Assembly (NCBI GenBank): GCA_963812015.1
Contig: CAWETI010000002.1
Coordinates: forward strand, 928,001 to 992,000
Source of the DNA: an uncultured delta proteobacterium
Lineage (GTDB): Bacteria > Desulfobacterota > Desulfobaccia > Desulfobaccales > 0-14-0-80-60-11
DNA length: 64,000 nt
Direction: 5' to 3'
Part shown: one piece after another, positions 2,084 to 51,693 of the stretch
Numbering within the stretch: position 1 is the first letter of the stretch
Layout of the letters: each line of letters starts with the position of its first letter
Made by a program: the position numbers and the translations under genes
Notes under the pieces: generated by a model
Told to the model about the DNA's origin: nothing
Databases searched by the model: none
The model's input: the letters and a program-made list of their open reading frames with translations, nothing else

Positions 2084-2578
2084 ATGTTCCTCAGGCTACG
2101 TCAGAGGCTGAAAGGCAATCGCCGGGAAGAAGGAGCCGCGTCAGTGGAGTTCGCCCTCTGTCTCATCCCCTTGCTGTTGATCGTGGCCGGCATCGTCGAT
2201 TACGGCGAATCCTGGTATATCCAATCGGTCCTCGCCACCGCCAGCCGGGAAGGGGCCCGCTATGCCACCCGGTACCAAACCGACAGCACCGGGGCGCGGC
2301 TTATCCCCAATAACCTGAATCCCACCATCCAAAACTATGTGCTCAACACCCCCGCGCAAAATGGCGGCAACGGCGGCTACGGCCTGCTGACTATCCTGCC
2401 CAGTAACGCCACCCCCACGGTGACTCCGGGAGGCGCCGGACTTACCACGGGGACCACCGGCGCGGTGGTCAGTGTGACGGTGTCGGCGCAGAAGTACTGG
2501 CTTTTTCTCAATCGGCTCATGCCCGGTTTGTCAAATCCCCAGGTGCTGACGTCCACCACGACGATGTCTTGCGAGTAA
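2084..2578 (+). CDS. tadE: TadE/TadG-family minor pilin (pseudopilin)
   Basis: Prepilin motif EEG/AASVEFAL, hydrophobic helix, ASREGARYA motif. GGAGG at 2071-2075 supports ATG 2084 (alternative 2078). Confidence 0.85.
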   Translation: MFLRLRQRLKGNRREEGAASVEFALCLIPLLLIVAGIVDYGESWYIQSVLATASREGARYATRYQTDSTGARLIPNNLNPTIQNYVLNTPAQNGGNGGYGLLTILPSNATPTVTPGGAGLTTGTTGAVVSVTVSAQKYWLFLNRLMPGLSNPQVLTSTTTMSCE

Positions 2579-2595
2579 AAGGAGGTGGCCGAGTC

Positions 2596-3807
2596 ATGCC
2601 TAAGCGCGTGAAGGGTTTCGTTGCCGACCAGTCCGGGGCCATGAGCCTGATGATCGCTTTCATCCTGGTGGTCCTTTTGGCCCTCGCCGCCCTGGCCGTC
2701 GATTACGGCTATATGTCCATGGTCCAGGGCGAATTGCAAAAAGCCGCCGACGCCGGGGCTTTGGCCGGGGCCAGTGCTTTAGGATCAGCCAACAATCCGG
2801 CTTGGTCCTCGGGGACGGCCCAGGCGACCTCACTCGTCCAACAAAATAATGCGGCGGGACAACTGCTGGCCGATTGCCAGGTGGATTACGGGTACTGGAG
2901 TAAGGTAAGCCACATCTTGCAGGCCTCCACGATTACACCCCAGCAAACCGATGTCCCGGCTATTCAAGTGACGATAGTTAAATCTTCCGGAAAAAACGGT
3001 GGTCCTGTCCAGCTGCTGTTCGCTCCGATCTTTGGGGTCAATACCTTTGACCTGAGTGCCCGGGCCGTGGCGATGCTGAAACCCGCCGCCAACTGGTCTA
3101 TCCTGGAGACCGGCAACGGCAACGTTACATTAAACAGCAATATCAACGTGAATCGGGATGTGGGCGATAACGGCTCCGGCTGGTTCACGATGAACAGTAA
3201 CGTGACGGTGCAAGGCAAGGTCTATCTCAACACCAAAACCGGCCTGACCAACAACGGCGGAGTAGCTCAGGGGGGAATAGAGCAGGATGCGGGATCAAAC
3301 GGCATCCTGGCGCAAGCCGTCCAAGATGCCCAGACGGCCTACAGCCAACTCACCGGCCTGGCCAACAACTTTGGGTCTTATCCAAATATTAATTCAAACA
3401 CGACCATTATTGGTACAAATACGGTGAACGTCGTGGACGTCACCAATTTGCTCCTGAACTCTAACAAAACCCTTACCTTAAGCGGAACCTCCAGCATGTC
3501 GTTTGTCGTCATGGTTTCCGGCACTTTTATCCTGAATTCCAACAGTAATGTAATTCTGAGCGGCGGGTTAACGCCGGGTAACGTAACTTTCGTGGATACG
3601 GGCACCGGTGGTGTCATCATCAATAGTAATTGCACCATGAATGGCAGCATCTTGAGTCCCAATTCTTCCGTCACCCTGAACAGCAATGCTGCCTTAAATG
3701 GCGCCCTGGTCAGCGGCAAGGATATTATTTTGAACAGCAACATCGTGGTGACGCCTCCCCAAACCTTCTTGCCATCCACCGGGCACGGCACGGCTCTGGT
3801 CAATTAA
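2596..3807 (+). CDS. tadG: TadG-like pilus protein with a C-terminal beta-solenoid (ice-binding/DUF3494-like) domain
   Basis: DQSG/AMS prepilin site and LQKAADAGALAGA Tad motif. C-terminal part has eight [LIM]NSN repeats. SD AAGGAGG upstream. Confidence 0.8.
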   Translation: MPKRVKGFVADQSGAMSLMIAFILVVLLALAALAVDYGYMSMVQGELQKAADAGALAGASALGSANNPAWSSGTAQATSLVQQNNAAGQLLADCQVDYGYWSKVSHILQASTITPQQTDVPAIQVTIVKSSGKNGGPVQLLFAPIFGVNTFDLSARAVAMLKPAANWSILETGNGNVTLNSNINVNRDVGDNGSGWFTMNSNVTVQGKVYLNTKTGLTNNGGVAQGGIEQDAGSNGILAQAVQDAQTAYSQLTGLANNFGSYPNINSNTTIIGTNTVNVVDVTNLLLNSNKTLTLSGTSSMSFVVMVSGTFILNSNSNVILSGGLTPGNVTFVDTGTGGVIINSNCTMNGSILSPNSSVTLNSNAALNGALVSGKDIILNSNIVVTPPQTFLPSTGHGTALVN

Positions 3808-41453: not shown

Positions 41454-42122
41454 ATGCCAAAACCTTATGTAGAGAGCTGGCCCCGGACGTATGTGGAGGC
41501 GGTGGCCCTGCAGGAGAAACTGCGCCATCGTATCCGACTTATTCCTCTCCCGCGGCCGCCCCGGCTGGTGGCCGGGGTCGATGCCATCTGCGACCGGGAG
41601 GATAAGCGCATCTTCGGGGCCGTGGCGGTGTATAGCTATCCGGAAATGGCATTGGTGGAGGAGGCGGGAGTGGCGGGGGAGTGTCCGTTTCCCTACCGTA
41701 CGGGGCTCTTAAGCTTTCGGGAGGTCCCTATTCTCGCCGCGGCGTTAGCGCGACTGAAGGAGCGCCCGGACGTGGTCCTGGTGGACGGCCAGGGGATTGC
41801 TCACCCCCGGGGATTGGGTCTGGCGGCGCATCTGGGCTTGGTGGTGGATATGCCGACGATTGGCGTGGCGAAAAGTCGGCTGGTGGGGGATGAACAGGAA
41901 CCGGACCTGGCGGCCGGTTCATATAAGCCGTTAATTTGGCAGGGAAACCTGGTAGGATTAATCCTGCGGACCCAACCGGGCAGAAAACCCCTTTACCTGT
42001 CCCCCGGGCACCGCATCACCCTGCCGGAATGTCTGGAGATCACTCTGGGTTGCGTCACCAGGTACCGGCTGCCCCTGCCGGTGCGGCAGGCGGATATCCT
42101 GAGCCGGCGCCTGAGGGCCTAA
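41454..42122 (+). CDS. nfi: Endonuclease V
   Basis: VAGVD, FPY..GLLSFRE, VDGQGIAHPR, IGVAKS and SPGH motifs. Confidence 0.93.
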   Translation: MPKPYVESWPRTYVEAVALQEKLRHRIRLIPLPRPPRLVAGVDAICDREDKRIFGAVAVYSYPEMALVEEAGVAGECPFPYRTGLLSFREVPILAAALARLKERPDVVLVDGQGIAHPRGLGLAAHLGLVVDMPTIGVAKSRLVGDEQEPDLAAGSYKPLIWQGNLVGLILRTQPGRKPLYLSPGHRITLPECLEITLGCVTRYRLPLPVRQADILSRRLRA

Positions 42123-42415
42123 ACCCTGGGCCAAGGATTCTGGCGCAACCCGTCGGCGGCGTTCGCGTCGAAGAGCAGGTCCCGGTAAAGCGGGCAGACG
42201 TGATAACCAGAATTACTGCAGCGCTGCTTGCCGGAATCCCACTCCCACCAGAGACAGTTTTCGCAAACCCCCCGCATCTCCCGGTTGAGACAGATTCGTC
42301 CCGCCTCCCCGAAGTTGACCATCAACCGCTTCCCCCCGATTTCCTCTTCTGGAAGCAGGGTAAAGTTACTTCTAGAATCGGAACCCCACAAATATTTGAT
42401 AAACCAAGTGCTCAT
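42119..42415 (-). CDS. Small Cys-rich hypothetical protein
   Basis: CENCLWW...C...HVCPLY. Start uncertain (MSTWF or MVNFG). Confidence 0.5.
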   Translation of the reverse strand: MSTWFIKYLWGSDSRSNFTLLPEEEIGGKRLMVNFGEAGRICLNREMRGVCENCLWWEWDSGKQRCSNSGYHVCPLYRDLLFDANAADGLRQNPWPRV

Positions 42416-42519
42416 GAAAATCAAATTATTTCTTTGATGGCCCGGGGGGAGCCGAAAGGCCAGAGGGCGGAGGCTGGCAAGACGGACCGGCGGCTTCGGC
42501 ATTTCCGGGACTCTTCCCC

Positions 42520-42978
42520 TTAAAAAAAATCGCTTTTGGTAAAGATCAGGGGGTGGCTCTGGGGATGGAGGATTTTGGCTTCCACCGCCTCACCCACGAA
42601 CAGGGTATGGTCGCCCGCGGCGTAGGTGTACACCAGCTTCAGGTCAAGGTAGGCGTACGCCTGGGGCAGGACGGGCGCGCCGCTGGAGGCCGGGACCCAA
42701 TCCAGCCCGGCGAATTTGTCGATTTTGCGGCCGCTTTTGTAACCGAAGCGTTTGGCCAGGTCCACCTGCTCGCTGGTCAGCACGTTGATGGCAAAGATGC
42801 CGCTCTCCTTGATCAGGGTATGGGAATAGCGGGGCGGGGCAATGGATACCATAACCAGCAGGGGGTTGAGGGACACCTGGGACACCCAGGCCGCGGTCAT
42901 GCCGTTGATCTTCTCGCCCAGGTGGGTGGTAACCACGTAAACTCCCTGGACCAGGGCCGTAAAGGCTACATCTTGCAT
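42520..42978 (-). CDS. Flavin reductase family protein
   Basis: GVYVVTT, NGMTAAWVSQVS and GDHTLFVGE motifs. Confidence 0.9.
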   Translation of the reverse strand: MQDVAFTALVQGVYVVTTHLGEKINGMTAAWVSQVSLNPLLVMVSIAPPRYSHTLIKESGIFAINVLTSEQVDLAKRFGYKSGRKIDKFAGLDWVPASSGAPVLPQAYAYLDLKLVYTYAAGDHTLFVGEAVEAKILHPQSHPLIFTKSDFF

Positions 42979-42995
42979 CTTGAGTCTCCTTCGGG

Positions 42996-43190
42996 TTAAG
43001 GGGAAGGCAGGACCGGATCAGTCGCCGGTGCAGCCGGCAAGGAGCGGTCGTCGGGCGCCATCCAGTCTTCGCAAATCCAGAACTTCCCCACCCCCTGGTT
43101 CAGGCGAGTGCACAGCCCCTTGTACCGGTAGACCCAGTAGCGGCAGGTGGAACAGACCTTCAACGGACGTTTCTCTAAGTTGCTACTCAT
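42996..43190 (-). CDS. Small four-Cys protein, possible HiPIP-like Fe-S fold
   Basis: CSTCRYW-x5-GLC-x10-WICEDW; SD GAGG; co-oriented 17 nt upstream of the flavin reductase gene. Confidence 0.6.
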   Translation of the reverse strand: MSSNLEKRPLKVCSTCRYWVYRYKGLCTRLNQGVGKFWICEDWMAPDDRSLPAAPATDPVLPSP

Positions 43191-43290
43191 GGACTGAGGC
43201 CTCTCTGTCGTCAGGCATAATCAGACTAAAAATTCTTGATGGTTGCGGCTGCCCCGGGTCAAGATGGCGCAAGGCATGCTCCAGAGCATG

Positions 43291-44322
43291 TTAAAGGTCT
43301 TCGGCTGCGAGGTCAAGGCGGAAATGGTCGTAGCCCTTGCCTGAGATATCGACCTCGCCCGCCGCGGTTTCCAGGATGACCCGGCCCCCGGGGACGATGC
43401 GCCCCAGCCGGCAGGGCGGCGCCAGTCCGGCCCGGGAGAATGACTGGGACAGGCGCTTCGCCACCTCCGGCGGGGAGGTGAACAGGAGGAGATAATCTTC
43501 CCCGCCGGTGAGGGCTAACTCCTGGGGGGCGCGGCCCAGATGCGGGGCCGCGGCCGTAACCCGGGGCGAGACCGGCAGGGTGGCGGCGGGGATGCGGGCT
43601 CCCACCCCGCTGGCCTGGCAGATATGGAACAGATCGGTGGCGACCCCGTCCGAGGTATCGATGAGGGCGGTGGCCAGGCCCTCTTTGGCCAGGAGGCGGC
43701 CGGCCCGGAGGTGGGGCCGGGGCTGGAGATGGGCCTCCAGTAACGGGGCTTTAAGGTCCGGGGGCAGAGTAAGGCCATGTCGCAAGATTTCCAGGCCGGC
43801 CGCAGCTTCCCCTAACGGCCCGGTGACGAAGACCACATCCCCGGTCTTTGCCCCGGAGCGCCGCAACATCTGGTCGACGGGCACCTGCCCCGTCAGGGTT
43901 ACGGTCACGATCAGGCCCCCGGGAGAGGCGACCGTGTCGCCGCCGATAACGGCTACGCCATACTCCCGGGCGGCTTGGGCCAGGCCGGCGGCAAAATCCA
44001 GGGCCAGACGGTGATCCCGGGCCGGGGGCCAGCCCAGGGACAGCAGGGCCTGGCGGGGTTCGCCGCCCATGGCGGCGATGTCGCTCAGGTTCACCGTCAG
44101 GGACTTCCAGCCCAACTGAAACAGGGAGGTAGAGGCCAGATTGAAGTGGACGCCTTCCACCAGGGTATCTATGGTCCACAGGAGATAATCGGAGCCGTTG
44201 AACTCCAGGGCGGCGCAGTCGTCGCCGATCCCCAGGATGACCGAAGGCGGGGCGGGGCCGAACTCCCGGCTTAGGGCGTTGATAAGGTCCCATTCGCTGG
44301 TGAGGGCATCTTCAGGCGGCAT
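43291..44322 (-). CDS. thiL: Thiamine-monophosphate kinase
   Basis: GIGDDCA, DTLVEGVHF, NLSDIAAMGG, GGDT, DTSDG and GGEDY motifs. Confidence 0.95.
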   Translation of the reverse strand: MPPEDALTSEWDLINALSREFGPAPPSVILGIGDDCAALEFNGSDYLLWTIDTLVEGVHFNLASTSLFQLGWKSLTVNLSDIAAMGGEPRQALLSLGWPPARDHRLALDFAAGLAQAAREYGVAVIGGDTVASPGGLIVTVTLTGQVPVDQMLRRSGAKTGDVVFVTGPLGEAAAGLEILRHGLTLPPDLKAPLLEAHLQPRPHLRAGRLLAKEGLATALIDTSDGVATDLFHICQASGVGARIPAATLPVSPRVTAAAPHLGRAPQELALTGGEDYLLLFTSPPEVAKRLSQSFSRAGLAPPCRLGRIVPGGRVILETAAGEVDISGKGYDHFRLDLAAEDL

Positions 44323-44467
44323 CGGGCTCCGGGACCATGAACCTCAAAAATCGGGTTGAGAAAGCGGCTTTTTACGGGATAGGGGCTTCATAAGCCGAGT
44401 CACAGTCTTTGCTGGCGCAGGCTGAAAGCCAGCGGCCACCGCCGCGGGGAACTCCCGACCGTTCCCC

Positions 44468-45214
44468 CTATTCCCGGCTCCTGAGTTTGGCCAGCAGCCT
44501 CAGCATCTCGAGGTAGAGCCAGATCAGGGTGACCATGAGGCCGAAGGCCCCATACCACTCCATGTATTTTGGGGCTCCTTGGGCGGCCCCCTGTTCGATA
44601 AAATCGAAGTCCAGCACCAGGTTCAAGGCCGCAATGACGACCACAAAAAGGCTGAAGCCGATGCTGACCCAACTGTTTTGATACATGAGGGGCATCCGGA
44701 TGCCGAAAAAGCCCAGGACCAGGGTGAGGAGATAGAACAGGGCGATGCCGCCGGTGGCCGCCACCACTCCCAGTTTAAAATTTTCGGTGGCCCGGATCAT
44801 TCCGGATTTGTAAGCCAGCAGCATGGCCAGGCAGGTGCCTAAGGTCAAGCCCGCGGCCTGGATGACGATGCCGGGGAATTGGGATTCGAACAGGGCGGAG
44901 ATGCCGCCGATAACCAGCCCTTCCAGGAGGGCGTACAGAGGGGCGGTGACGGGCGCCCAGGTCTGCTTGAAGATGGTGACCAGGGCCACGACGAGGCCGC
45001 CGATGGCTCCCACCGCCAGCCAGGGGGCTACCACCTGGGGGTTCATGGCCTGGTAATACTTGCTCCAAATCCAGGAGGCGGTCACCAGGACGCACAGCAG
45101 CAGCAAGATGGCCTTGTTGGCGGTCCCCTGGATGGTCATGGCCGCTTCGCTCCGGGCGAGGCGTCCGACCCCGGTAAAGGTATTGTCGCTGAGGGCTGGA
45201 TTGCCGGTCCTCAT
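44468..45214 (-). CDS. Bax inhibitor-1/YccA family membrane protein
   Basis: MRTGNPAL, LVLDFDFIE and LMVTLIWLYLEMLRLL; about seven TM helices. Confidence 0.88.
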   Translation of the reverse strand: MRTGNPALSDNTFTGVGRLARSEAAMTIQGTANKAILLLLCVLVTASWIWSKYYQAMNPQVVAPWLAVGAIGGLVVALVTIFKQTWAPVTAPLYALLEGLVIGGISALFESQFPGIVIQAAGLTLGTCLAMLLAYKSGMIRATENFKLGVVAATGGIALFYLLTLVLGFFGIRMPLMYQNSWVSIGFSLFVVVIAALNLVLDFDFIEQGAAQGAPKYMEWYGAFGLMVTLIWLYLEMLRLLAKLRSRE

Positions 45215-45504
45215 AGGTTTCCTCCCAACCTTAAATATTCAATCCAGTTTATCAGGATTTCTGCTTCCGGGAAACAAAAAGGCGGCGGGGGTTTTACAGG
45301 GGGGAGGGGCGGTCAATCGCCGCAGGCGCCGTACTCTTGGGCGGCCCCGGCGTCTTGCCGATGACCGCGCCGGCGAAACTTTTCTGTAGTGATGGAGGCG
45401 CACCCTCCTGACGGGGACGGTCGCCCCACCGGGACTAACCTGCGGGGGGGTGCCCTGCCCGCCGGGAAACAGGTTCGGGCTTGGTGGCGGCCGCCAGGCC
45501 CTGG

Positions 45505-46971
45505 TCAGACCATGGACTTGGCTTCGTCGCCAATGGTGTCGTAGTCGGTGACGCCCATGGGTTTGACAAAATAGGTCTGGCAGACGTAATCCAGTTCCTG
45601 GGAGGTGAGTTGGGGAGTCTGCTCCAGGAACCGGGCCCGGTCCATCAGGTTCTCGATCAGGTCCCGGGGGTGGCAGGCGCAAAAGGGCCGGGAGGAAATG
45701 ACATAGTAGCGGGCCATCATGTCCCGGATGACTTCCGGGTCAAAGGCGATTTGGTTCTGGGCGCAGACGCGGCGGAAGATTTCCAGATACTGTTCCGGGG
45801 AGACATAGCCGATAAATATTTTGTGGCGGATACGTCTGAGGAAAGCCTCATCCGCCAGGCTGAAGGGGTTCAGGTTCGTGGAAAAAATGATGAGCTGGTC
45901 GAAAGGCACGCCGAACTGTTGGCCCGTATGGAGGCAACAGAAGTCTTGCCGGGTTTCCAGGGGATATATCCAGCGGTTAAGCAATTGCCGGGGGGTAATC
46001 TTCTGGCGTCCGAAGTCATCGATGATGAACACCCCGTTATTGGCTTTCAACTGATGGGGGGCCTCGTAAAACTTTAGATGGGGATTGAATTTCAGTTCCA
46101 GGGCATCTTCGGTCATCTCCCCCCCGGCGATGACAATGGGCCGCCGGCACAGAGCCCAGCGTTTGTCATGTGGTGGGGTCTCCGGGGTTGGGGGCACCGG
46201 CTGGTGGGTGAGTTCGTCGTACAGCCGGATGACCTGCCCATAAACAAACAGGGCATAAGGGACGTAGACCGCATCCTGGTAGGCATGGCCGATACAATTG
46301 GCCATGATCGTTTTGCCGTTGCCCGAGGGACCGAAGAGAAAAATGGACCGGCCGCTGTTGATGGCTGGACCGAGTTTCGTGAGGAAATGCTCGGGTACGA
46401 CATAATCGGCGAAGACTTCCTTAAGGCGCCCTTTCTCCACCTTGACCTGATTGATGGACTGGGCCTCCACCCAATCCCAGTAATCCTCCAGGGGCACCGG
46501 AGCCGGCCCCACGTACCGGTTTGACTCCAGGCACTGCTCGGCGTGGAGTTTCCCGGCGTCGGTCAAGGTATAGCGCATATCCAGGGCGAGATGGTTTTGT
46601 TGGGTCAGGGAATCCCGGGCTTTAACCTGGACATACCCCTGGCCTTTCAGATACGCGAAGAGATCTTCCACCAAGCGTCGAGAGATCTTTAAATCTTGCG
46701 CCATCTCCTGGGTGGAGATGGCATCCCGAAAAAAGGCATGCTTGAGAAGGAGTTGGGTCAGAAGACTTTTTGGCAGGCCCAGGTCCTCAAAGGTTTCCGG
46801 AATGGGGGGATAGGCGTGGACAAACTTGGCCAGCACCTCAGGTTCCACGAGGTTGAGGTCCAGGAGGTGTTTAGCCAGGAACCCGCGGGATTTTTTTTGC
46901 CGAAACAGGGCCGGAGCTAATTGGTCGGGATCCAGGACTCCGGCTTTAACCAAACGTTGCGCCAGGTTCAT
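45505..46971 (-). CDS. AAA+ ATPase with a degenerate MshEN-like N-terminus
   Basis: Walker A GPSGNGKT, Walker B IIDDFGRQ, STN sensor, DEAFLRR arginine finger; N-terminal LAQRLVKAGVLDPDQLAPALFRQ. Confidence 0.82.
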   Translation of the reverse strand: MNLAQRLVKAGVLDPDQLAPALFRQKKSRGFLAKHLLDLNLVEPEVLAKFVHAYPPIPETFEDLGLPKSLLTQLLLKHAFFRDAISTQEMAQDLKISRRLVEDLFAYLKGQGYVQVKARDSLTQQNHLALDMRYTLTDAGKLHAEQCLESNRYVGPAPVPLEDYWDWVEAQSINQVKVEKGRLKEVFADYVVPEHFLTKLGPAINSGRSIFLFGPSGNGKTIMANCIGHAYQDAVYVPYALFVYGQVIRLYDELTHQPVPPTPETPPHDKRWALCRRPIVIAGGEMTEDALELKFNPHLKFYEAPHQLKANNGVFIIDDFGRQKITPRQLLNRWIYPLETRQDFCCLHTGQQFGVPFDQLIIFSTNLNPFSLADEAFLRRIRHKIFIGYVSPEQYLEIFRRVCAQNQIAFDPEVIRDMMARYYVISSRPFCACHPRDLIENLMDRARFLEQTPQLTSQELDYVCQTYFVKPMGVTDYDTIGDEAKSMV

Positions 46972-47108
46972 TGCAGTACCACCTCAAATAAGGTATTCGT
47001 CGCAAGGGTCTATCAGGCCATATTGACCCTGAGTCATAGCCAGTTTTTTAGGATCATGCGCAGGTGCTTATATGATTGGTCGAACTACGCGTTAAACCAA
47101 GCCCGCCC

Positions 47109-47279
47109 CTAAGAGCCTGAGGGGAACATACCCGCCGCCGAGGTGAAGATTGATAAGAGCTGAGTGCCAAGCGTTCCGACACTGGCGGCAATGGCGCTGG
47201 CTATGAACGCCACCAGCAGGGCATACTCCACTGCGGTAGCCCCGGACTCGTCCCAGGAAAACTTGAGTATCAGGCCCAT
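47109..47279 (-). CDS. flp: Flp/Fap type IVb pilin (56 aa, not in the ORF track)
   Basis: MGLILKFSWDESG/ATAVEYALLVAFIASAIAASVGTLG: canonical G/xxxxEY Flp motif; SD AAGGAGG. Confidence 0.9.
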   Translation of the reverse strand: MGLILKFSWDESGATAVEYALLVAFIASAIAASVGTLGTQLLSIFTSAAGMFPSGS

Positions 47280-47389
47280 GATGGTTTCCTCCTTGCGAAA
47301 GTCTGGTCGACGCGATGGTGATTAGGTTTGACTCCGGACTCAATGGACATGGTGAACCTTGAACTTTCCTTGATTTTAGGGCCTCCGAA

Positions 47390-48397
47390 TCACGATCCGG
47401 ATGGGTGAATGATGATGGAGTCCAGCGGCACGTCTTCTGCTTCTGAAGGCTCCTCGGCCGCTTTCCAGGCCACCCGGGGCAGTCTGGATTCTTTCACGAG
47501 CCGCAGCGCGATCTGGTCCAGCCCCATCATGGCTTTGCTTTTCTTCTGGTGCAGGGGGAAGGGCACCATGTGACTGACGGCCGCTTCCACCCCGGAATCA
47601 AAGGGGACGTGCCCCATAATATCTGGCTGGATACTCAAGAAATCCCGGCACACCGAACTGATAATTTCGGGGGATTTCAGGTCGGCATTGCTCTTGACCA
47701 TATTGACCACCAGGAACATATGGAAATCCCACAAAGTCTGAGTCAGGCGGGCGTGTTTTTCCGGGTTGGTATGCTCAAAGTGGCTTAAAAAGTCCTGCAT
47801 CGAGTGGATGCTCTGTCCGCTCCCGGTTTCGCCGCCCTGGTATAAGAGCTGGAGGACTTCATTATCTTTGGCAAAATCCCGGGATAACTTCCGGTACAAG
47901 GCGCTCTTGATGAAGCCATAGGCATTTTGCAGGGAGGTGGCCTGGGAAGTGAATAAGGTAATTTTCCCCCCGGAGTAGTTGAAAAAATCCAACGTATTGA
48001 AGGAGGTGCCGGCCCCCAGGTCCAGGAGCACATACTGGGCCGGCAGCGCTTCGATCTGATTTAACAGCCTGATTTTTTGCGAATAAGTGGGGTTGGCCGC
48101 GCCCAGCAGATCATCCGCGCCGCAGATGAGGCCGATACCTTCAACGGAGGTTTCAATGATGGTATCTTCCAACCGGGTCACTTTCTTGGTCAGAAACTGC
48201 TCCAGGCTGACGTGAGGGTAACGCACTCCCATCAAGGTATGGAGATTGGCCCCGCCCAGATCGCCATCGATCAGGATGACCTTCTTGCCCATACGGGCCA
48301 GGGAGACCCCCAGTCCCAGGGTGATCAGGCTTTTGCCAATGCCCCCTTTACCGCCGCCTATGCTCCACAGCTTGATCCTGCTTAAGTTAGCCGGCAT
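47390..48397 (-). CDS. MinD/FlhG-like P-loop ATPase
   Basis: Deviant Walker A GKGGIGKS, IDGDLGGANL, LDLGAG and VVNM motifs. Confidence 0.85.
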   Translation of the reverse strand: MPANLSRIKLWSIGGGKGGIGKSLITLGLGVSLARMGKKVILIDGDLGGANLHTLMGVRYPHVSLEQFLTKKVTRLEDTIIETSVEGIGLICGADDLLGAANPTYSQKIRLLNQIEALPAQYVLLDLGAGTSFNTLDFFNYSGGKITLFTSQATSLQNAYGFIKSALYRKLSRDFAKDNEVLQLLYQGGETGSGQSIHSMQDFLSHFEHTNPEKHARLTQTLWDFHMFLVVNMVKSNADLKSPEIISSVCRDFLSIQPDIMGHVPFDSGVEAAVSHMVPFPLHQKKSKAMMGLDQIALRLVKESRLPRVAWKAAEEPSEAEDVPLDSIIIHPSGS

Positions 48398-48409
48398 GAT
48401 CTATTCTCC

Positions 48410-49048
48410 CTATACCTGGCGGGGTTTTTCCCCACCCGGTGACTGGGTAACTCGTTTTTGCCTGAATGACTGCACCACCTTTTGGGCGATCCCCAGGCTG
48501 CCCAGCAACCAGAATACCCACCCTAAGGTCTTGAAAGAGGAGGAACCGGTAAACTGGAGAGCCAAGCCTCCCACGAGCAACGCCATCCCGACGATATAGA
48601 AGTGGTGCACCAGGGGCGAATGCGTTGGCATTTCCTTCACCTGGTCATATCTCTCCCAGAGCCCTTTGATGTCTGGGGGGGTGTGTATCATGTGATCACT
48701 TAACCGTTTGAGCGCCTCCCGGGGCGGGTTGATCAGTTGTACTCCCACTTCCACCGGCGACCGGCCATCGCTGCTGGCCTTGGACCAGGAAAATATCGCT
48801 TTGCTCGTAAAAGGGTGCGGTTCTCCAGGGCTTGCCACGTGGAGGAGGCAATCCCGGCCGCGGTAACGGTCCCAGTCGGCTATGCGCACGGTGGCAGTCA
48901 CTGACACGGTAACCCCTCCCTGGGAGGACAGGTTTTTGATCAGCACGGGTATCAGGAGCGGCGTTTCCTCCCCCTGGCGGACAATCTCCAATATTGGGGC
49001 AGGGGGTTGAGAAGTGGCGGCCTCCGGTTTGGGGTGACCTGCATTCAT
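48410..49048 (-). CDS. PilZ-like beta-barrel protein with two C-terminal TM helices
   Basis: IKNLSSQGG resembles the PilZ (D/N)xSxxG motif; FSW...VGVQL strand pattern; SD AAGGAG before ATG 49048. Confidence 0.55.
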   Translation of the reverse strand: MNAGHPKPEAATSQPPAPILEIVRQGEETPLLIPVLIKNLSSQGGVTVSVTATVRIADWDRYRGRDCLLHVASPGEPHPFTSKAIFSWSKASSDGRSPVEVGVQLINPPREALKRLSDHMIHTPPDIKGLWERYDQVKEMPTHSPLVHHFYIVGMALLVGGLALQFTGSSSFKTLGWVFWLLGSLGIAQKVVQSFRQKRVTQSPGGEKPRQV

Positions 49049-49159
49049 ATCTTCTCCTTTATGTCGTCGTGAACCCGGCAAATGAGCGCCGCAGGGGAGG
49101 GGACGGGGCCCTCCAGCTTTTCCACCAATCCTGCGCCCGGCCTAGGGCGCTTCCCCCGC

Positions 49160-50716
49160 TCATGTGTCGTTTCGAGACCGGAAATACCCCCGGGCCATAA
49201 CGCCGGCCCGCTCCAATTTTTCACGGAAGGGCAGTCCACCATATTCGGGGTTGATGCTGATATAGTTCTTAAGACAAAAGATCACCATCTGGACTTTGTC
49301 TTGGTCATTGGCCAGATCGGGGTTCTGGGTCAAGAAATCACCGGCTGCCGCCTGGATTTCCTGGAGTTGCTGTTTTTTATAGGCATTTTGGTTACCTAAG
49401 GCATCCCAGGTGAATTCTATGGTGTTTTCCGGGGGTTTTGAGCCCGGTTCGGCCGGGTTGGCTGACGAGCCGGTGAAATATTGTTCCCATTGGGCCACCA
49501 GGTTGTCTATTTCCCCAGCCTGGTTCTTGGCGCCCGCCAGCATCGCTTCGTAGCGGCAGCTCTCCATGATGACCTTTTCACCCAGGCCGGCCAGTAACTG
49601 GAAGAACTGCCCCGAAACCGATTTATCAAAGCGCGGGGCGGCTGGCCCCTCCTTGTCCTGAAGGCTGGGCTCGGCCGGTCTAACCCCGGAAAACAAATCC
49701 AGGGTATCCGTAATGGGCTTGGTGGCAAGGGGAGCCGAGTCCGGGCCGGCGCCGGGTTTATCAGGCCATGCCGTCTCTGTCAGCCTGGCCGGCAGCCCCG
49801 GAACCGGGGCGGCCCCTGCCGGTTGACGCCGGGCCTGGTCGATTAATTCTTGGAAAAAACCCTCCTTATCCGGGTTGTTGCGAGCCTCCCCATGGGGAGC
49901 GTGCCACAGCAGACCCAGCAGCAAAGTCGGATCTTTGAGTCCCAGCCCCAGGGCCGTAGTCAAAATCCCCTGATAATATCCATCCTGAGAGGTAGGGGGC
50001 ACTAACAAGGCTTTCAACATGGCCTCGTGAGGGGAGATCATCTGGTAAATTTCCGACCAGGACGGCACTTCGGGTTTTGCCATGGCGGCGGGGATATACT
50101 CTTTGAGAAATTGCCAGACCGCTGGTTTGGGTGGCTGAGGCGGCGATTCCCAGGGGGGTTGGAGCCAGCGCCAGGGTTCTCGGGCTTGGGGCTCCAGAGA
50201 GGGCGGCACCAGCACCAGGCCGCCTTCGCCATAAATCAGCACCTGGGGCGCCAGAAAGTAGGAGGGCGGAATTTTCGCCTCGGCAGGCAGGGCATAAAAG
50301 TGCTGCTCCCGGCTTTCGCCCATGGTGGCGACACAGTCGGCCCGCCATTCTCCCCACTGGTCTAAAGACAGGGCCCCTTCGCCTTTGTTCACTTCCAGCA
50401 CCAGCAAATTGGAGGCCTTGCCCGTGCGGATGCCGATATTGATCTGTGATTGGTCCACCCCCAGGTCGGAAAGCTGCTGGGACCACAGGTCCACCGGCTG
50501 GCTGAGGTCCAATGTCAGCGGGGTGCCTTCCGGCGACTTCATGCCCACCAGGACCCAGCCCAACCGTTGGTAATGCGGCGCGTAGGTTACCAAGAGTTCC
50601 TTGAGATCCAGGTTCTCTTTCAGGTTGAGAATCCGGCCGATTTCCTCCCGGCCGATCCTGACGGAAAAATCCTTGGACGCCAAATCTGAGTCCTTCCAAT
50701 CCTGAGATTGAACCAA
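49160..50716 (-). CDS. Prim-Pol (bifunctional primase/polymerase, AEP) domain protein with a degenerate active site
   Basis: YQRLGW, NIGIRTG..SNLLVLEVN, QHFY and GEGGLVLVPPS..W.W. The DxD motif is replaced by ExN. Confidence 0.72.
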   Translation of the reverse strand: MVQSQDWKDSDLASKDFSVRIGREEIGRILNLKENLDLKELLVTYAPHYQRLGWVLVGMKSPEGTPLTLDLSQPVDLWSQQLSDLGVDQSQINIGIRTGKASNLLVLEVNKGEGALSLDQWGEWRADCVATMGESREQHFYALPAEAKIPPSYFLAPQVLIYGEGGLVLVPPSLEPQAREPWRWLQPPWESPPQPPKPAVWQFLKEYIPAAMAKPEVPSWSEIYQMISPHEAMLKALLVPPTSQDGYYQGILTTALGLGLKDPTLLLGLLWHAPHGEARNNPDKEGFFQELIDQARRQPAGAAPVPGLPARLTETAWPDKPGAGPDSAPLATKPITDTLDLFSGVRPAEPSLQDKEGPAAPRFDKSVSGQFFQLLAGLGEKVIMESCRYEAMLAGAKNQAGEIDNLVAQWEQYFTGSSANPAEPGSKPPENTIEFTWDALGNQNAYKKQQLQEIQAAAGDFLTQNPDLANDQDKVQMVIFCLKNYISINPEYGGLPFREKLERAGVMARGYFRSRNDT

Positions 50717-51048
50717 CCATCGCCCGAGCGCAACTCGGCTGGTCTGTTAAGCGAGCGTCGGACCCGCCCAGCAGCCCTGCTCAGGTGCAAAGTCCGCCGA
50801 GCCTGGCCCTGGAAACGAGCTGTCTTAAGGTTTTGAAGACATTTTTACTGGAGAGGGGATGTTTCAGCAATCGGGGCAACCCTGATAATGGGGTTCTTTT
50901 TCCCCCAATTTCCAGGTAAGGGTTATGCCATAAAATGGGGGCCTAGCCTAAAAAACCGGTTGAAAAAGTCATGGTGGGGATAAACTTCGGGGTGGTGGGC
51001 GCTCCCGGAAGAGCAGATCAACGAGGCTGCGCCAGGTGCACAACGCCA

Positions 51049-51693
51049 CTAAGGTTGTCGGTCCAAATGGTATAAAATAATGGTGATAACAACCGTTCCG
51101 ATCAACATCCAGATTGGTCCAAACAACCACAGAAACAACAGAACACTAAAGTAATAGCCGCGCATCCCCATAGTGTAATGCATCATGCCGCGGTTGAGGA
51201 TATTAGTGATATATTCCGGAGTTATTTTGTGAGCCAAATTAGATGGGACGTTGATCATAAAATTAACGTGGTTTAGATAGCGGATGGCCAGGCAGAAGCT
51301 AAAGAAGATGAAAAAGAAATCGACAATCAGCACCATCAATTTGAATAACCATAAGGCCCGGTGTTCCCTTACCAACTCATTAAGACTAGGGGTGATTTCC
51401 GCCATTTTTTGCGGGCTAACGGCCACGCTGAGCAGCCCCAGACAGATCAGGATGCCCGTGGAAGCCAGGAAACTGGCGGCCATCGTCCAGTTGCGCAGGG
51501 TCTGGACGGCCAGGATATCCCGACGTTCCGCCATGATGGATTCCACCCAGTGAGCCCGTAAGTGATTGGTTATGCCCGTCGCAGTGGCCATGGGTTTCCG
51601 GTATACCAGGTAGAGCCAATGGATATGGTAAGCCACCAGGATGAGAAACGAGGCGCAGGTGTAACAAATTTCCCAATGAGTCGATTCATACAT
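51049..51693 (-). CDS. DUF599 family membrane protein
   Basis: ILAVQTLRN..MAASFLAST, GMRGYYF and WLFGP. Start set at MYEST. Confidence 0.85.
   Translation of the reverse strand: MYESTHWEICYTCASFLILVAYHIHWLYLVYRKPMATATGITNHLRAHWVESIMAERRDILAVQTLRNWTMAASFLASTGILICLGLLSVAVSPQKMAEITPSLNELVREHRALWLFKLMVLIVDFFFIFFSFCLAIRYLNHVNFMINVPSNLAHKITPEYITNILNRGMMHYTMGMRGYYFSVLLFLWLFGPIWMLIGTVVITIILYHLDRQP

Follow-up and report, generated by a model that had tools for sequence, protein, structure and literature searches.

Why should a gene for a primase that has lost its active site stand in one run with genes for a PilZ-fold membrane protein, a MinD-like ATPase, an Flp pilin and an AAA+ ATPase? The question is raised by positions 45505-50716 of a 64,000-nucleotide stretch of DNA from an uncultured delta proteobacterium of the order Desulfobaccales (GenBank assembly GCA_963812015.1, contig CAWETI010000002.1, positions 928,001 to 992,000; hereafter the window). 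An original prediction had described these five genes as a candidate system linking nucleic-acid or nucleotide sensing by an inactive archaeo-eukaryotic primase (AEP) fold to the positioning or control of Flp/Tad pili. Our analysis of the locus and its relatives reveals that the conserved unit is a three-gene cassette, composed of a dead Prim-Pol protein, a PilZ protein with two transmembrane segments (PilZ-2TM) and a MinD-like ATPase, and that this cassette is real, restricted to the order and built on an exapted primase.

The run contains the five consecutive minus-strand open reading frames (ORFs) first described, with intergenic gaps of 111, 12, 110 and 137 nt that agree with the reported spacing of about 12-140 nt. 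The first ORF is real, but its end at 50716 is an upstream in-frame TTG; the likelier start, at 50683, yields a protein of 507 aa like the database protein P0001, and core gene 1, the dead Prim-Pol, accordingly spans 49160-50683. Core genes 2 and 3, encoding the PilZ-fold membrane protein (48410-49048) and the orphan MinD/FlhG-like ATPase (47390-48397), follow on the same strand. The co-oriented run is longer than proposed: although the five ORFs do share the minus strand, they belong to 11 successive called genes (42119-51693).

Gene order was predicted to be conserved in related genomes, and it is, in the form Prim-Pol, PilZ-2TM, MinD-like ATPase. Cassettes were tallied over 92 hand-picked loci holding 77 dead-Prim-Pol genes, with genus g1 over-represented. 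A MinD gene lies within 5 kb downstream of 58 of the 77 (57 on a strict count, because the MinD at locus L197 belongs to another clade), and PilZ accompanies 54; the AAA ATPase is found at only 22 and an Flp gene at only 14 (15 counting L025, missed by the script), so that the five-gene system does not hold as a unit. A WxxW motif, described below, is nearby in 54 of the 58 Prim-Pol genes with MinD downstream. Counted by hand in genomes searched for both proteins, a Prim-Pol gene stands upstream of 45 of 49 copies of the cassette-type MinD clade, which number up to five per genome, and ten genomes (G015, G021, G038, G039, G041-G046) lack both. Paralogous cassettes within a genome mostly diverge more than orthologues across genomes (7 and 6 hand-picked pairs, respectively), the exception being the orthologue pair L036/L043, equally divergent in Prim-Pol and PilZ. 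The distance matrices of the three core proteins correlate at 0.56-0.76 (33 cassettes), as expected under shared descent.

Outside Desulfobaccales no dead Prim-Pol was detected; within the order, genomes carry several paralogous cassettes. In a sample of the phylum, its profile matched (E 1e-15) in 13 of the 14 genomes within the order (in-order genomes) other than that of the window (G000), and in 0 of 386 others; across all in-order genomes, matches occur in 41 of 51. Among 1.84 billion representative proteins, 76 scored below 1e-30, and the full-length matches beneath them, as inspected, are active Prim-Pols.

The proposed AEP fold of the first protein is borne out by a Pfam family match (E 2e-10) and by an AlphaFold model (mean pLDDT 72) that resembles the pRN1 primase-polymerase 3m1m (Foldseek E 6.5e-6; structure comparison Z 11.0, rmsd 13.2, 236 aligned) and 1ro2 (Z 10.1, rmsd 4.1, 162 aligned). 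A family-specific helix precedes the AEP fold (~aa 28-204) and a helix-bundle or PriCT-like domain (205-290); a disordered linker, a long helix (356-403) and a helical bundle (430-506) follow towards the C-terminus. An intact relative, P0225, gives a full-length profile match (probability 98.5) and has the helix bundle in common; a sequence search of the PDB with the Prim-Pol profile returned 0 matches. For the C-terminal bundle, an atlas search returned unnamed clusters only, and a resemblance to InvH (VIA Z 9.3, rmsd 3.9, 74 aligned) was set aside as within the usual range for helical bundles. Stand-alone small ORFs matching this bundle and no other part of the protein occur in G018 and G020 (L046, L047, L048, L055).

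According to PMC5862659, AEP catalysis requires an acidic motif I (hhhDhD/E) and motif III (hD/E), and almost all AEPs lie on mobile elements with these acids conserved. At motifs I, II and III the protein of the window carries E97-x-N99, H128 and L149. None of 60 non-redundant family members keeps all three metal-position acids: position 97 is Glu in 49, the next motif position is variable, and motif III is acidic in one, as against 24-25 of 25 active relatives acidic at each metal position. The nearest active relatives, which are primase-helicase type proteins (one of them fused to an AAA_25 helicase-type domain), have the helix bundle too, and in addition a Gly-rich motif II and a DRS motif, both of which the family has lost. 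The motif II His (H128) is kept in 56 of 60, and the small residue before it is replaced by Glu. The conservation of this pair together with residue 97 (E97 in 49, E126 in 54 and H128 in 56 of 60), on what the model places as core strands, could reflect a new catalytic or metal-binding activity; however, 11 of the 60 have Lys, Arg or Thr at residue 97, most of them in ParA-type cassettes with the same gene order, and we regard a new active site as improbable.

The dead Prim-Pol is nonetheless kept under purifying selection, with a dN/dS of 0.19-0.25 for its two domains (6 pairs) against 0.11-0.19 for a GlnRS control (5 pairs). The locus keeps synteny with housekeeping genes among relatives, and the immediate neighbours in a Pfam scan (ThiL-like, BaxI_1 and DUF599 genes) are syntenic throughout the genus; no helicase or mobile-element context was seen among the neighbours so scanned, and the only phage match was a weak one. 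The lost acids, the dN/dS and the housekeeping synteny together support the suggestion of a domesticated, catalytically dead AEP. A decaying mobile-element remnant might be suspected from the primase-helicase type of the nearest active relatives and from a few fragmentary copies (L045, L073, L079, L197), but frames are intact in most genomes, and occurrence in most in-order genomes, fixed synteny and dN/dS near 0.2 largely refute this reading, which we consider scarcely credible.

If the primase is dead, what accompanies it? The second protein comprises a PilZ barrel, a helix bearing the WxxW motif and a C-terminal hydrophobic hairpin that would form two membrane spans. Its top VIA matches are cellulose-synthase and other cyclic di-GMP (c-di-GMP) receptor chains (best Z 9.9, rmsd 3.2, 87 aligned), supporting the barrel, and RxxxR is absent throughout the Desulfobaccales alignment; the earlier description of a PilZ fold with degenerate motifs is thus confirmed. 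An RxxxR at the C-terminus of the Prim-Pol, considered as a trans-acting PilZ motif, was ruled out as not conserved. The cytoplasmic part of the PilZ protein ends in the helix D-x3-L-W-x2-[WY]-D (aa 126-135; 48644-48673, minus strand), a predicted MinD-docking motif in which D126, L130 and W131 are invariant over 36 aligned rows. As a background, the pattern occurs 12 times in the six frames of G000 (~2.6 million codons). A WxxW-like match ending one HD-GYP protein (L052) is missing from five others and was treated as chance.

The same helix recurs outside the order. Among the best 80 of at least 530 loci retrieved with the MinD alignment, 18 out-of-order loci have a PilZ-like gene directly upstream of MinD that bears it. 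Nitrospirota, Desulfobacteraceae (TPR-cNMP-PilZ) and Eisenbacteria are among the groups concerned, and RxxxR and DxSxxG are intact in most of these carriers. A wider PilZ-MinD pairing exists beyond Desulfobaccales. Where PilZ is missing within Desulfobaccales, the N-terminus of an upstream ParA mostly bears the helix instead (L044, L054, L191, L192, L200), which was not seen at L193; the WxxW helix was absent from every locus in which MinD is paired with DnaJ-HTH_25 or has its PilZ protein downstream. Because it is found upstream of the same MinD clade in other phyla, on canonical PilZ domains and on the ParA that replaces PilZ, the WxxW helix probably docks MinD. The helix-bearing PilZ domains of other phyla mostly keep both c-di-GMP motifs, so the ancestral PilZ-MinD pair was probably c-di-GMP-gated.

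The identification of the third protein as a MinD/FlhG ATPase stands in part. It belongs to the MinD family, with the deviant Walker A motif and both its lysines intact and FleN, FlhG and MinD as closest solved sequences, but it is not FlhG: it lacks DQAxxLR, the N-terminal FlhF-activating motif of FlhG/FleN (bioRxiv 2022.03.19.484964), and G000 contains no FlhF (two SRP GTPases only) and no flagellin, which is absent from all 17 genomes of the genus. A division MinD is ruled out by the lack of a MinE match in G000 (99.86% complete), and two traits of TadZ/CpaE, an N-terminal receiver domain and a position before tadA, are absent. The protein has an insertion of ~50 residues and an Asn, N158, aligned to the helix-7 Asp of FlhG; helix 7 of E. 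coli MinD is described as the MinE/MinC site (PMC6803595). Nine columns set the WxxW-partnered MinD clade apart, with T150 and Q157 flanking N158. In a quick tree of 86 rows, which omitted nine duplicated or closely related in-order loci and loci without a full-length called MinD, all 37 WxxW-partnered rows fall inside one 40-row branch (SH-aLRT 87), with 0 among the other 46. A complex prediction for MinD, PilZ (12-142) and full-length Prim-Pol scored 0.00 with Prim-Pol as the scored partner and the PilZ-MinD pair unscored, a value that counts neither for nor against the assembly.

Other MinD clades keep different company. A sister clade (26 of 86 tree rows; Myxococcota, Nitrospirota, Acidobacteriota, Bdellovibrionota) is followed by a gene with DnaJ and HTH_25 domains (L120, L123, L128-L135, L141, L142, L152-L180); DnaJ is fused to MinD at L195, and similar long MinDs occur at L196-L198. 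A third clade (L125, L139, L145, L153, L160, L162) has a C-terminal extra domain and precedes a two-domain protein ending in PilZ.

What does the dead Prim-Pol connect to? In Desulfobaccales its domain is fused via a coil to PAS-HD-GYP (P0157, of 724 aa, and P0183, whose cluster has 29 members) and to PAS-GGDEF (P0181, with GGEEF intact), and a 617-aa fusion is present in several assemblies. Labels such as HD-GYP, LuxR regulator and TadZ rest on Pfam matches and motif reading. One fusion precedes a PilZ-MinD pair (L184) and another an Flp gene (L187); altogether, 17 of the 77 dead-Prim-Pol genes are fused or adjacent to HD-GYP/GGDEF enzymes. At six other loci, including the C3 copy of G000, the parts are separate genes: a kinase and a LuxR regulator come first, then Prim-Pol and PAS-HD-GYP, and last an unknown protein and a short WxxW membrane protein. 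This second dead Prim-Pol copy of the genome (L061, G000:C3:1791400-1798500) has a frameshifted PAS-HD-GYP gene, an unknown protein of 396 aa and then a short WxxW-like membrane protein. At L069:4703-6097, HD-GYP is fused to the C-terminal half of Prim-Pol, a single case that may reflect misassembly or recent chimera formation. A search for longer Prim-Pol fusions (633-2000 aa) found none and is uninformative, because it also missed the known P0157.

These fusions bear on the notion that the dead AEP is a ligand sensor (for single-stranded DNA, an RNA primer or a nucleotide) feeding c-di-GMP enzymes and the MinD module. In the GGDEF and HD-GYP fusions alike, the domain sits at the N-terminus, where an input domain would be expected; AEP fold and helix bundle are both kept along with the motif II His, and the pRN1 bundle is reported to be needed for template binding (PMC2965215). 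Conversely, other residues stand in place of the DRS motif, of the Gly that precedes the His and of the Arg that follows motif III, and 4 of 60 members have Tyr for the His itself. The AEP region has a pI below 6 in 10 of 13 dead members versus 8.8-9.4 in the four active relatives nearest to them, although acidic examples also occur among active relatives further away. With metal ligands and both motifs lost and most members acidic, we found no positive evidence for the nucleic-acid or nucleotide sensing originally put forward, and a sensor role appears unlikely. The fuller version, in which a mobile-element primase turned nucleic-acid or nucleotide sensor would gate diguanylate cyclases and phosphodiesterases and, through a WxxW-PilZ/MinD switch, set where and when Tad pili are built, is similarly doubtful.

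Downstream of the core lie the two genes that suggested a pilus. The first (47109-47279, minus strand) encodes a fast-evolving Flp pilin (Pfam Flp_Fap E 4e-13, above the Pfam cut-off), which takes this place in genus g1, g11 and L102 alone; in G028 the MinD-AAA spacer holds a short-period tandem repeat in place of the Flp gene (L032:3882-4079). The second (45505-46971, minus strand) encodes an accessory, Tad-associated AAA+ ATPase with a weak HTH match, annotated as a predicted ATPase with chaperone activity, whose Walker motifs are intact in all 120 homologues listed. Its N-terminus matches the MshE-type motif NF053729 (E 7e-8) at 32 bits, under the 38-bit cut-off, with NLA and FLA/FLG in place of RLG, as the earlier description of a degenerate MshEN motif had it; MshEN c-di-GMP receptors have two (R/K/L)LG...Q motifs, and those with a hydrophobic first residue can still bind, according to PMC11731258.

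The tadV, rcpC, rcpA, tadZ and tadA-C genes are absent at the window locus. The remaining tad genes, which the original prediction had suggested locating, were found elsewhere in G000 as two clusters, each with a TadZ, and the genome has seven Flp genes. Apart from these clusters, an orphan pair of TadE-like and TadG-like genes lies at 2144-3807 of the window. In g2, g3, g4 and g14 a cassette copy stands behind a full tad cluster; overall, eight of the 77 dead-Prim-Pol genes lie directly behind tadB/C/G. Of 14 loci retrieved for a paralogue of the AAA ATPase, 9 place it within a tad cluster, as do both alphaproteobacterial plasmid loci inspected; MshEN-type copies are Tad-associated at L099 and L206, not at L050, L056 and L100. 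A gene with the same annotation sits in a Vibrio tad cluster (PMC7859628), a likeness of annotation. Flp and the AAA ATPase are thus looser, Tad-related add-ons to the three-gene core.

How firmly, then, is the cassette tied to the adhesive Tad pili? A Tad and c-di-GMP context is present and frequent, as the AAA, Flp, tad and c-di-GMP enzyme counts above attest, but the Tad tie is not obligatory. The cassette might be a general polarity or c-di-GMP module with Flp and AAA co-transcribed as passengers in one sub-lineage. Of the 77 genes, 30 stand apart from any Tad-related gene or c-di-GMP enzyme. Type-B and ParA-type copies lie mostly among unrelated genes, the out-of-order PilZ-MinD pairs scanned lack tad neighbours, and RcpC is so widespread in the order (48 of 51 genomes) that its co-occurrence with the cassette says little. 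Yet the Tad association recurs in various forms, with tad clusters upstream (g2, g3, g4, g14), Flp and AAA downstream (g1, g11) and Flp beside fusions, and we judge a general module without a Tad tie to be a minority prospect, albeit one to be taken seriously.

The reading we favour, to which we assign roughly an even chance, is that of a MinD positioning module anchored in the membrane: the WxxW helix would dock the ATPase, and the pseudo-primase would act as the adaptor that links c-di-GMP enzymes and cargo related to Tad. A mobile-element primase would have been captured in the Desulfobaccales lineage and then have lost catalysis, and the PilZ protein of the order would have lost RxxxR and gained a membrane anchor. 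By analogy with the MinD family, and given its intact Walker A, the ATPase would alternate between a monomer and an ATP-bound dimer. The co-occurrence suggests that the anchored PilZ-fold protein would bind the ATPase via the WxxW helix, much as MinE or BcsR helices bind their ATPases, so recruiting or activating it at the membrane. The pseudo-primase, through interchangeable C-terminal parts (helical bundle, coiled coil, PAS-GGDEF, PAS-HD-GYP), may join the module to c-di-GMP turnover and cargo; these fusions and pairings are consistent with the scaffold-like role proposed at the outset. For the copy in the window, the Tad/Flp pilus system would be the likely cargo, and the genes for the Flp pilin and the Tad-associated AAA would have joined the operon; the cargo may be different for other paralogous copies.

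Several observations weigh against the positioning module or its Tad tie. The tad clusters of G000 have a TadZ of their own, and 30 of the Prim-Pol genes are without Tad or c-di-GMP neighbours. The cassette is missing from eight genomes with RcpC, and G047, which does have it, gives no RcpC match. At two g10 loci (L078, L207), Prim-Pol, MinD and AAA occur but no WxxW carrier; MinD is missing from six loci with Prim-Pol and WxxW, and four MinD copies (L049, L188-L190) have no Prim-Pol. The WxxW motif was defined on the same sequences on which it was counted, and the support value of its MinD branch comes from a quick, midpoint-rooted tree.

Several known systems invite comparison with the cassette. 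It resembles pRN1-type Prim-Pol primases with PriCT in AEP fold and helix bundle, and differs in its lost metal ligands, the lack of a helicase, chromosomal and vertical maintenance, and fusion or pairing with signalling proteins; relative to active AEP primases, the fold, bundle and motif II His are present, and acidic motifs I and III and a helicase or mobile context are absent. BcsE, in the cellulose-synthase vestibule of E. coli, is a degenerate-enzyme scaffold. In that BcsRQ-BcsE-BcsA(PilZ) assembly, as described in PMC7840130, a MinD-family ATPase contacts PilZ and a short helical partner occupies the MinE site. The BcsQ-BcsR-BcsA PilZ assembly is by analogy the closest functional counterpart of the cassette, which differs in that cellulose synthase genes were not seen here, both Walker A lysines are kept and the pseudo-enzyme is a primase. 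FlhG/FleN and MinD-MinE share the intact deviant Walker A and the closest solved sequences, and differ in the features already set out. TadZ/CpaE is likewise a MinD-like ATPase near tad/flp genes and is reported to position Tad pili (bioRxiv 10.64898/2026.07.08.737194); the cassette ATPase lacks its receiver domain, and the TadZ genes of G000 are separate. In the PilB-PilZ-FimX system of Xanthomonas type IV pili, a motif-less PilZ is reported to act by protein contact (bioRxiv 10.1101/814665) beside an MshEN-type ATPase; the cassette ATPase is AAA+ rather than a PilB traffic ATPase, and that system offers no counterpart for MinD or the pseudo-primase.

Twelve RNA runs contained 5-8% of the words, and four were examined closely. 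In three of these, every one of 30 bins is covered by relatives' contigs, mostly less than 95% identical, and in the fourth 25 of 30 are. PilZ and MinD are spanned by one contig, flp and the start of the AAA gene by another; the contigs carry no strand or single-transcript information and have no silent control. Promoter and terminator scans of the locus did no better than chance, and the window contains no Rfam families. Two small Cys-rich ORFs kept in relatives lie at 42119-42322 and 42996-43190, the one tested having no Pfam match, and a cobalamin riboswitch downstream of one cassette copy (L036:9892-10077) probably belongs to the next genes.

We found no description of the cassette, nor of a signalling pseudo-primase, in the literature covered, from which subscription papers were absent. 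A replication enzyme of mobile-element origin has become an order-wide pseudo-enzyme fused to c-di-GMP enzymes, for which we found no precedent; it is confined to one mostly uncultured order, and its functional steps are all inferred. The WxxW helix emerges as a short partner motif, probably for docking, of an orphan MinD clade of Desulfobacterota, Nitrospirota and Eisenbacteria. Were the sensor reading true, an AEP fold would serve as a signalling input domain. Beyond the order, the canonical PilZ carriers suggest direct c-di-GMP control of a MinD ATPase.

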